A stretch of DNA of 38,338 nt, from contig JADHUR010000001.1 of assembly GCA_016784445.1 (NCBI GenBank), forward strand, positions 155,128 through 193,465, read 5' to 3'. The notes beneath the pieces are model-generated. The model worked only from the letters and a program-made list of their open reading frames with translations, was not told the origin of the DNA and did not search any database. Numbering within the stretch: the first letter of the stretch is position 1; each line of letters opens with the position of its first letter. Positions 1 to 7,936 of the stretch are shown here, one piece after another. Both the position numbers and the translations under genes were made by a program. Origin of the DNA: Patescibacteria group bacterium. GTDB taxonomy: Bacteria > Patescibacteriota > Patescibacteriia > UBA1558.

Positions 1-3000
1 AACCATATTCTCCAACTACTATATTATCATTTTCATCATAAGCACGAACTGTAAAATTAACAATCTCCTCACTATTATTAAATTGATAACTATCTGGCGT
101 AACCTCCACTCTATCTATTGAACATTCAGCATCCCCTGTATAGAATGGCCAAACGTAGTCAGATTCTAAAGTGAAACCTTCAACATCTTGCACACCATTT
201 ACACCGCCCTTAACCGTAGCTCTGTATTCAGAACCTGCGTCTAATATACCGTCTAGAGGATAAACATATAGTTTTGTATATTGTGAATCGTTTGGTGGAA
301 TATTTTCAAGACCACCAGATATATTAATATCTAAATCACATTTACCCTGATCAACCCCATCAGCACAATCACTGTCATTTGAACAGGCATTACCACTGTC
401 TGGCCCAGTTTCACATAAATTAGTAACTTTCTCAAAATGAACAGTGTCATTATTTTCAGTGCCCGTTATAAAAGTTAACCAATTCATTAGCGAATCAAAC
501 TCAGCTGAAATTTCAGTATTAATACAAACATCACTAGCTGGCTCTCCAGGTACACATTGATTGGTATCAATCTCACAACTTTCTGTACAAGTTAAAACAC
601 CTTCTGCAAAACCATCTAGATCTACACAGTATTGGCTACCAGAAAATTCATAATCCCCATCAACATAATCGCACTTTTCACCATCATCTAAGAAATTATT
701 ATTGCATTCAGCGGTCACAACGCCAGTACATTCAATAGTACAACTCGTATATGATGAATTAATATCTTCTGCGCTACGTGCTTCATTATATATTTTTACA
801 TTATCTATAGCACCTACAAAGAATTGTCCCATTAATAATGGAGTCGTATTATTATTTATATTACCGGTATATGAAATGGTATTTTCCTCAGCACCATTTA
901 TGTATAATTTCAAATTACTATTATCATAAGTTAGGGTTACATAATTCCAACCATCTAATATTGATGCAGTAACAATATTATTTTGACCAACTAATGTCCC
1001 CGCAAAATTAACATACCCCTTTATTTCATCATTATCCATATATAATCCAAAGGCAGATCCTTTAGTTACAATTTGGCCACTTATAACAGATATTAAAGAT
1101 CCCAAATGACGACCTACTAATTGAGAATAATGCTCCCAAGTACACCATATATCTGCATGAGTATTTGTATGATCACTACTAATAATGAAAACATTATTAG
1201 CAATGCTTGATCTTTTAATATTAGTAGTGTGTAAATTCCAATTTCCATTATAACCAGGAACTTCCCAATCATAACTAGCCAATTGCTGTCCTGAATAATT
1301 ACCATATCTATTACCTCGAACAATTAAATAAACTGGCTTATTTCTATCAAGTCTAGATACGTCTAAATCTATAGTATTATGATCCCAAATAATAATATCA
1401 TAATTATAAATTTCATCTGGGATTCTTGCTACAGTATCATAATGATCTCCATCCGCATTTAAATGACCAAAATTATGTCTATTATTAATATTAATAAAAT
1501 CATCTATTCCAGAAATTGAGTTATTAAATTGACCCTCATTACCTTCATCACCTTGATATTTTAAAGTTGTAATAGAATACTCTTGATAAAATTCATCTGA
1601 ATTTACCCAAGCTGAAAGTGTAAACTGATTTGTTAAATCTAAATTACCATTTGGGTCATTAATAGTAACAAATTCATCAGAACCATTAAATTGTAAAGCA
1701 CTATCCCCAATCATACCTGTAATCCAATTATCTCCACCATTTACTAATGCTCCGTCATTTAAATTATTAATACTACTAGCAACTATATTTCCCTCTCCTT
1801 CATCCATTGACCAAGTACCAATTTGAGAATCAATTACTTCATTATCGCAAGAAGGACAATTACCAAAATAATTACCATTTTCTAAATAGCAAATATTACT
1901 ACAACCATCACCAGAAGAGGTATTATTATCATCACACTGTTCATAATAAAATGAACTATTAGGCCATTGTACTATTCCATCACCACAACTACCTCCTATT
2001 ATTATTTCCGATTGACAATAAATACTACAACCATCACCAGCTGACGTATTACCATCATCACACTGTTCACCTAAGTCTATTTGTACAAAACCATCCCCAC
2101 AATTTGGTGACTCTATTACAGTTAAACTAGTTAATCCAGAAACTCCTAAAGTTGTAGCTTGGATATTTGTTTCTCCAGAGCCTATGGCTGCTACTAAATT
2201 CATATTAATATTTGATGACTCTGTAGTAGCTATAGTTTCATTGCTACTTGACCAAGTATAAACAAAATCATTTGGTGGCAGTATTTCACAATGTGCACCA
2301 AAAGGTAAAGATGAATATTCTTGTTCATTACCTACATAAACTGTAGTATCAGCGGGAGATATAGACACATGACTAAGTTCACATTCTCCTTCTCCAGTTT
2401 TAAAATACCAACTATAAGGCTCTAAACTAAGACCACTTGGAGTAATAATATCTGCTGTTAAATTCACTTGATACCAAGTACCATTTGCTAATAATCCATC
2501 CGTATCTATAACAAAACCATTACCTTGATCTGTGTTAAAAAATGTTAAATTATCAAATGTGAAATTTAATTGACCAGAACATGTGTTTGAATCAAAATTA
2601 TCACCAATACCACATTCAAATATCTTAATATTATTATCTGTGAAAGAAGTCTCATCCATAATAGTATTAAAAGTTGCAGAAAAACTAGAATTAGTACATA
2701 TTCCCTCAATATTCTTATATGGTGAAGGACTTTGTACATTATTATCTGTACAACTATTATTATCTATTACATATGGCATAGGAATTGAATCCGGTACATA
2801 TGTATTACAACTTGTATATTTATATATATAGGCAGGACCCGGAGCTCTACTATGATCTACTAAATCACCAAGCCAAACTCTATCATTAACCCAATCATAT
2901 TGACCTGAGATAATATCATTACCAGAACCATCACTGCCACTATTTCCTTGTTCAGATATCCATTCCGCAATAAACTCACCAGTAACAATATCCATCATAC

Positions 3001-7936: not shown

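Follow-up and report, generated by a model that had tools for sequence, protein, structure and literature searches.

The 38,338-nucleotide window analysed here, from a bacterium of the Patescibacteria group, carries at its left end most of a gene for a giant protein that opens with a pilin module of the type found in type IV secretion systems (T4SS) and continues into a passenger of more than 3,000 residues. The window corresponds to C7:155128-193465 of the genome (698 kb in 20 contigs, here C plus a number, estimated to be 92.5% complete), and the complete gene, C7:153287-163063 on the minus strand, codes for 3,258 aa. An earlier note on this DNA had treated it as a single odd gene. It is instead half of a conserved operon of two genes, both pilin fusions, which is nearly universal in its class, and the probable identity of the protein changes as a result.

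Translation of the minus-strand frame from the ATG at position 7936 meets no stop codon before the edge of the window, as the earlier note had stated. The note had also considered this open reading frame (ORF) missed by the ORF list. This is not truly so, as the frame merely runs off the left edge, and it is listed once open ends are allowed (2..7936, 2,645 aa, open at the 3' end). With the base composition of the gene, which gives a stop probability of 8.3% per codon, the chance of 3,258 stop-free codons is ~1e-122. The giant pilin-fusion gene is thus confirmed as real.

The pilin module at the N-terminus

Kyte-Doolittle analysis of the whole protein revealed exactly three hydrophobic segments, centred on aa 13-25, 54-71 and 97-110, which correspond to a leader and two transmembrane (TM) helices, TM1 and TM2. 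In the alignment of modules, a conserved A-x-A/Q motif precedes a D-x-G-L mature N-terminus. The loop between the helices, TAGGNADRVDRAKKIL, contains four K/R residues, and the mature N-terminus before TM1 and the stretch after TM2 contain none, their only charged residues being acidic. Hydropathy and charge counts therefore agree with the earlier description of a cleavable signal and two TM helices joined by a basic loop, cleavage itself being a prediction. Known VirB2-type pilins have a cytoplasmic loop, with both termini on the outer side. Application of the positive-inside rule indicates that the same should hold for the giant. Given this distribution of charges and the absence of any later hydrophobic segment, the passenger should lie outside the cell, which fits the order proposed in the note (signal out, loop in, passenger out), a topology that is rule-based.

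The T4SS_pilin profile (PF18895) matches aa 44-112 over positions 3-71 of its 71, scoring 39.7 bits when the module is taken alone and 33.4 bits within the whole protein (cut-off 26.6). The TrbC/VirB2 model (PF04956) aligns over its full length and scores 28.3 bits with the isolated module, for a cut-off of 27.9, versus 21.3 bits, below the cut-off, with the whole protein. AlphaFold2 modelled the module as a confident hairpin (helices 45-76 and 82-120) with a predicted local distance difference test (pLDDT) score of about 90. The module also aligns column for column with nine free-standing pilins of its own genome, which stop exactly where the linker of the giant begins, and it is 55% identical to one of them (C15:51529). 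These sequence comparisons support its membership in the patescibacterial T4SS_pilin family, and the label 'pilin' as used here draws on the Pfam models and on context. Of the VirB2/TrbC-type resemblance put forward earlier, the part that stood is the PF18895 match above its cut-off; the PF04956 match is at threshold only, and no characterised pilin was matched. The giant departs from typical family members, which are small (about 110-150 aa) and are found in arrays or beside virB4: it is encoded on C7, the pilin array is on C15 and VirB4 on C18. It is thus a fusion built on a member of the family rather than a typical member.

Conservation of the module is high. The mean column identity of 26 fused modules is 47%, with Y70, G72, G80, A88 and G98 invariant and T77 nearly so, and W75-M76-T77 is invariant across 46 modules. 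The AKK loop and several Gly residues are invariant or nearly invariant in the fused modules, as they are in free pilins. In every fusion, a flexible Gly/Pro-rich linker directly follows a conserved (D/E)ATG, at the position that marks the end of free pilins. Judged from these alignments, the hairpin is conserved in its sequence and not just in its hydrophobicity, unlike a plain anchor. Nothing that the earlier note had named as telling against its claim (an in-frame stop, the want of any pilin-family match, a cytoplasmic passenger) was found outright.

A two-gene system of the class

The gene immediately upstream codes for a 990-aa partner (Table 1) whose pilin module is 58% identical to that of the giant. 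Its stop codon overlaps the ATG of the giant gene (TAATG), and the two are translationally linked. An exhaustive search with the 138-aa module retrieved 39,348 cluster representatives at E<=1e-3. Among the best 150, which were looked at, 100 have one N-terminal module, followed by a tail of >500 aa in 67 cases, >1,000 aa in 47 and >3,000 aa in nine. The other 50 are 'polypilins', in which one ORF strings together 2 to 17 modules in tandem (e.g. P0009, 1,775 aa); these would have to be processed to monomers, or else would be membrane proteins with multiple hairpins.

A scan of one genome per species yielded 79 loci, all from Patescibacteria (Komeili-, Uhr-, Magasanik-, Falkow- and Buchananbacteria/Parcubacteria groups). 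ORFs that bear the module reach 500 aa or more in 48 of these loci and 2,000 aa or more in 28. Many public records of metagenome-assembled genomes named 'uncultured Gammaproteobacteria' (L006, L008, L009 and others) hold typical patescibacterial pilin-fusion loci, and these names look like placeholders or errors. The genome under study and 30 relatives each have 6-15 pilin-family genes (31/31), and in at least 17 of the 31 a medium-sized fusion (about 520-1,000 aa) is directly followed by a giant one (2,200-4,600 aa).

The giant also harbours a domain of ~300 aa near its C-terminus (aa ~2975-3215) that is conserved in many loci. When the profile of this domain was run against 151 genomes sampled evenly across the class, 138 had a match (130 of the 136 high-quality ones), mostly as a single copy in ORFs of 2,000-6,000 aa; outside the class, only one of 115 sampled genomes had one. 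We fetched 20 such loci from different families across the class, 19 of which include the 5' end. The ORF opens with the pilin module in all 19 (E = 1e-32 to 1e-42), and in 18 a pilin fusion of 557-1,045 aa is encoded just upstream on the same strand. The gene of the window has the same layout, with the module and the ~300-aa domain in an ORF of at least 2,000 aa and a fusion in the 500-1,050-aa range immediately upstream on the same strand. From these distributions, the medium and giant fusions make up a near-universal, mostly single-copy two-gene system of the class and not a sporadic adhesin.

AlphaFold2 modelled the conserved domain in two parts (pLDDT 75), and Foldseek found no significant match to its fold. 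Its second part (aa ~3095-3215, C7:153416-153778, left of the window) aligns with the head of a type IV pilin encoded in the window itself (25952-26443, minus strand; hhalign 82%, E = 1.1e-5), and the match starts just past the hydrophobic stem of that pilin. Outside the class, the domain profile matched only canonical GFTLIELL pilins. One end of the giant thus carries the T4SS-type pilin module, and near the other lies a domain like a type IV pilin head. In contrast with type IV (N-methyl) pilins, whose head region aligns with the second half of the conserved domain, that domain has neither the G-F-T-L-I-E methylation motif nor the hydrophobic stem, and its head-like part sits about 3,000 residues into the chain. 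This part resembles a pilin head, but the giant is not a type IV pilin.

Passenger, neighbouring genes and other pilins of the genome

The 3,118-aa passenger contains 79 Cys, has a net charge of -329 and is devoid of hydrophobic segments. Pfam analysis of the giant detected three Big_5, one Big_7, seven TIG, two DUF4215 and one Laminin_G_3 domains and a weak CBM_4_9 match, and a segment-by-segment scan added further Big_5 matches and Big_2. The Ig-like, IPT/TIG, Cys-rich and LamG-like modules of the earlier note were thus recovered. This was not the case of its 'propeller-like' stretch (aa 1400-1720), which has no Pfam match; matches of the propeller type belong to the 990-aa paralogue upstream. 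The Cys content, the charge and the lack of hydrophobic segments fit an extracellular fibre that probably binds Ca. At its C-terminus (...SSDLDGEEKPAE) there is no hydrophobic segment, nor is there any after aa 120, and Pfam scans and hydropathy detected no LPXTG motif with hydrophobic segment and basic tail, no RTX repeats and no type I secretion system (T1SS) or sortase signal in the giant.

The closest orthologue, L001 of Komeilibacteria, is 72% identical over aa 1-1353 and does not have aa ~1720-2400, so the middle of the giant is cassette-like. The block of Big_5/Big_2, DUF4215 and LamG domains is one of whole domain blocks gained or lost among close relatives. Its Laminin_G_3 domain is interrupted by a His/Trp/Asn-rich insert of ~170 aa (window 1082-1591, aa ~2116-2285) with no Pfam match at E<=0.1.

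Table 1. Features of the giant gene and of its upstream partner. Positions are those of the window unless preceded by C7.
Feature	Position	Strand	Basis
Window part of the giant pilin-fusion gene, aa 1-2645	1..7936	-	ORF listing, translation, genome extent
Remaining 613 aa of the giant, left of the window	C7:153287-155127	-	Genome extent
Signal peptide, aa 1-27 (MKRYYSK, hydrophobic core, AAA before D)	7856..7936	-	Hydropathy, alignment; cleavage predicted
VirB2-like pilin hairpin, aa 28-120 (TM1 aa ~45-76; basic loop AGGNADRVDRAKK; TM2 aa ~82-120)	7577..7855	-	PF18895, PF04956, AlphaFold2, free-pilin alignment
Gly/Pro-rich linker, aa 121-140, beginning where free-standing pilins end	7517..7576	-	Alignments
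First Big_5 Ig-like domain, aa 144-255, common to the upstream paralogue	7172..7507	-	Pfam, comparison
Big_7 Ig-like domain, aa 264-331	6944..7147	-	Pfam
First IPT/TIG block, aa 418-790	5567..6685	-	Pfam
Second IPT/TIG block, aa 1060-1400	3737..4759	-	Pfam
Beta-rich segment with no Pfam family, aa 1400-1720	2777..3736	-	75% identical in the L001 orthologue
Variable cassette, aa ~1720-2400: Big_5 and Big_2, two DUF4215, Laminin_G_3 with ~170-aa insert	740..2776	-	Pfam; absent from L001
Upstream 990-aa partner: same pilin module, three Big_5, beta-propeller-type domain	7936..10908	-	Pfam, alignment
Pilin-module DNA of the partner, 219-nt direct repeat of 7611-7829 (70% identity)	10559..10777	-	Nucleotide comparison

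Further upstream of the pair are yqeY, rpsU, hisS and lepB. Directly downstream of the giant, on the same strand, three genes (C7:147419-153235) code for a 1,138-aa secreted coiled-coil protein ending in Cys-rich DUF4215 repeats and for two single-TM proteins with Asp-rich repeats of the Ca type and 'RD..RL.D...YP' motifs like those of type IV pilin heads. These three may belong to the same surface system as the giant. At the other end of the window (30900-38338, minus strand) lies a tightly packed envelope-glycan operon, which encodes two GT4 glycosyltransferases, a Wzy_C/O-antigen-ligase-like protein, a secreted GHL15 and FG-GAP protein and a DUF11 protein.

PF18895 has 13 matches in the genome, namely the two fusions and 11 others, one of them weak (on C15). 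Nine of the genes form an array (C15:50010-54017) about 10 kb from dnaN/dnaA, with a 222-aa pilin that has a Cys-rich tail at its head (C15:50010-50678) and eight short pilins. A 383-aa pilin, also with a Cys-rich tail, is encoded at C18:29043-30194 beside a VirB4-like ATPase (P-loop_TraG, E = 2e-29) and a PrgI/VirB3 protein. Only one S26 signal-peptidase gene is present in the genome, and the idea that a further S26 enzyme, of the TraF type, processes the fusion was rejected on this ground.

Possible roles of the fusion pair

The literature on Patescibacteria already describes pilin arrays close to dnaA and a minimal MPF-FATA-like T4SS (Quinonero-Coronel et al. 2025, PMC12102498). An array of VirB2-like pilins is essential in Southlakia epibionticum, the one Patescibacterium that has been tested genetically (Wang et al. 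2023, PMC10633639). Surveys of patescibacterial T4SSs detected no adhesin, both VirB5 and PrgB being lacking (PMC12102498, PMC12857230). The genome under study likewise has an array and a minimal VirB4/PrgI locus, and the fused modules, which share PF18895, the leader, the hairpin and the basic loop with the published pilins, form one subfamily with a single type of array pilin. In contrast, published VirB2-like pilins stand alone, at about 110-150 aa, whereas the modules of the pair carry ectodomains of 870 and 3,100 aa and are encoded outside the T4SS locus and the array. Pilin-fused giant proteins are not mentioned in the literature that we searched, in which short pilins and arrays are described, and the medium and giant pair is apparently undescribed there.

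The reading that we put first, for which the chances seem to us about even, is that the giant is a surface fibre handled by, or coupled to, the T4SS pilin pathway. Sec would insert the hairpin so that its two ends face outward and its loop stays in the cytoplasm, signal peptidase I would remove the leader, and the passenger would be displayed outside the cell. The T4SS pilin pathway would then handle the hairpin, either by docking it at the VirB4/VirB3 platform or by extracting it and incorporating it along with free pilins, in which case the fusion would be a rare, first-assembled (tip) subunit. The long passenger might contact the surface of another cell and so stand in for VirB5 or PrgB adhesins. 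This reading is suggested by the conservation of the hairpin, which is about that of free pilins (W-M-T...G invariant), and by its covariation with the hairpin of the partner. The presence in the same genome of a T4SS core (VirB4-like, PrgI/VirB3) with an adjoining third pilin fusion also counts for it.

The covariation appears in the way that the modules group, which is by genome and not by type. Identity is 59.7 +/- 10.5% between the medium and giant modules of one genome, and between genomes it is 45.9% for giant-giant, 43.6% for medium-medium and 44.1% for cross comparisons; in 11 of 19 cases, a module has its closest match in its partner from the same genome. For the genome under study, the nucleotide identity of only 70% with no long identical tract excludes recent gene conversion between the two modules. 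The grouping by genome without recent conversion thus implies that the likeness of the two hairpins has been maintained, through selection for a shared partner or else through old tandem conversion.

Several observations weigh against a link with the T4SS. Across nine genomes, the one under study and eight relatives, the array pilins divide into several orthologous types; the fused modules are no more similar to free pilins of the same genome than to those of other genomes, and we saw no sign of co-evolution across loci. The grouping by genome could therefore be due to old tandem gene conversion. The giant pair and the T4SS genes are on different contigs and are not adjacent. VirB4 was detected in 143 of the 151 class genomes; 131 have both it and the giant, seven the giant only, 12 VirB4 only and one neither, as expected under independence, although with both genes near-universal this co-occurrence test has no power. 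With the VirB4 of the genome under study as a query, one of the seven VirB4-missing cases proved to be a contig-end fragment, but six genomes with the giant (G040, G068, G086, G127, G153 and G166) remained VirB4-negative even with this lineage-specific query. A 3,100-residue passenger would hinder packing except at the end of a filament, and no T4SS pilus has been seen in Patescibacteria, for which reviews call one possible only (PMC12857230).

Searches for canonical relatives of the module were also negative. A profile search of PDB sequences found nothing, and Foldseek comparison of the modelled hairpin with the PDB gave no match at E<=0.001, only insignificant helical ones with no pilin listed. 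No relative of the module was found by tblastn in 72,556 plasmids, and hhalign with TrwL of plasmid R388 returned a probability of 0.2%. This is weak negative evidence, because short helical hairpins carry little signal.

Many of these points would fit a different role, in which the module is merely a two-helix membrane anchor, derived from a pilin and recruited once, of a T4SS-independent envelope or attachment fibre, e.g. a surface layer or spacer. Its hairpin would be conserved for membrane insertion, self-association or pairing with the partner protein. We hold this, the main alternative, for a serious possibility, albeit one that falls clearly short of an even chance. The pair lies among housekeeping genes (hisS, rpsU, yqeY, lepB) away from the T4SS locus, and its near-universal single-copy distribution resembles that of a core envelope component. 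The six giant-bearing genomes with no detectable VirB4, the fused and free pilins showing no same-genome excess of similarity, and the failure to match canonical pilins in the PDB profile, Foldseek and TrwL comparisons all point the same way. However, simple anchors usually preserve hydrophobicity rather than sequence, whereas here W-M-T, several Gly and the AKK loop are invariant or nearly so, as in free pilins, and the module is not shortened, keeping both its leader and its D-x-G-L mature N-terminus. Moreover, the six VirB4-less genomes are scattered, multi-contig bins whose sister genomes have VirB4, and with three of them estimated to be 100% complete, the absence could be a real loss or a binning gap.

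By analogy with RP4 TrbC, which undergoes C-terminal trimming, the module might also be a cleavable carrier, a handle for export or maturation from which the passenger would be cut at the Gly/Pro linker or close to it, to be set free or to stay bound non-covalently. The flexible linker found after (D/E)ATG in every fusion, at the end point of free pilins, would suit such a cut, as would the need for processing in the polypilins with 2-17 modules among the closest relatives. We nevertheless find this improbable, as the genome has its single S26 signal-peptidase gene and no second, TraF-like one, no conserved protease gene lies beside the pair, and the proposed cleavage has no demonstrated motif. 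As the genome is a 20-contig metagenome bin, one might finally suspect an artefact, i.e. a mis-assembly, a pseudogene, or a pilin wrongly joined to a downstream adhesin gene. The probability of this is close to nil given the 3,258 open codons (P about 1e-122) and an architecture repeated in 19/19 orthologues of different families and in relatives with 89% and 72% identity. Stop-codon readthrough at the pilin/linker junction, by which one gene would yield both a free pilin and the fusion, was checked and rejected as well. Alignments of tblastn continued past a stop at four loci, and there the in-frame downstream sequence is short and non-coding, with terminator-like hairpins in two of the loci and the next array pilin in one.

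Handling by the T4SS pathway has a more specific form, in which the class (Komeili-, Uhr-, Magasanik- and Falkowbacteria) would build a VirB2-type filament on a single-membrane envelope, the first-assembled end of which would be a matched pair of fusions of ~600-1,000 and ~3,000 aa with co-evolving hairpins. We consider this rather unlikely as it stands. The domain like a type IV pilin head might additionally couple the giant to the type IV pilus system.

Several known systems offer comparisons. With VirB2, TrbC, TrwL and TraA of diderms, the giant shares the leader, two hydrophobic helices, a short cytoplasmic loop and outside termini, the latter two being predicted by rule in its case. In contrast with these, its host is a monoderm, and it has no detectable similarity to TrwL, plasmid genes or PDB chains. 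In F pili, the C-terminus of the pilin is exposed at the surface and tolerates added peptides; we know of no natural C-terminal extensions of thousands of residues in canonical conjugative pilins. VirB5, at the tip of diderm pili, and PrgB of Gram-positive bacteria have the role in target-cell contact that is proposed for the giant, but they have no homology to it and are separate polypeptides, PrgB being sortase-anchored, whereas the adhesin-like body of the giant is covalent with its pilin module. Large adhesins of the SiiE/LapA type, secreted by T1SSs, and LPXTG Ig-repeat adhesins are similar in length, acidity, chains of Ig-like domains and lectin-like modules. Unlike them, the giant has no RTX repeats, T1SS signal, LPXTG motif, C-terminal hydrophobic segment or basic tail, and its predicted anchor is an N-terminal hairpin. 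The Pam pili of candidate phyla radiation bacteria represent an unrelated Ig-fold, donor-strand system (PMC13278184).

Patescibacteria account for much of bacterial diversity, and their way of life seems to be one of attachment to other cells. Both the T4SS and its array of VirB2-like pilins are essential in the single species amenable to genetics. The adhesin role of the giant and the episymbiotic lifestyle of the organism, as put forward in the earlier note, are inferences. A pilin module covalently joined to a fibre of roughly 100 nm, as estimated from the number of domains, paired with a second fusion and present in about 95% of the genomes of the class, is a concrete candidate for the missing contact part. 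If the module serves only as an anchor, the pair would represent a new and very widespread mode of anchoring giant surface proteins in single-membrane bacteria. If the filament with a fused end exists, these would be the first modular conjugative-type pilins, in the place of VirB5 and PrgB, and the essential T4SS of Patescibacteria would gain a concrete device for contact with the host.

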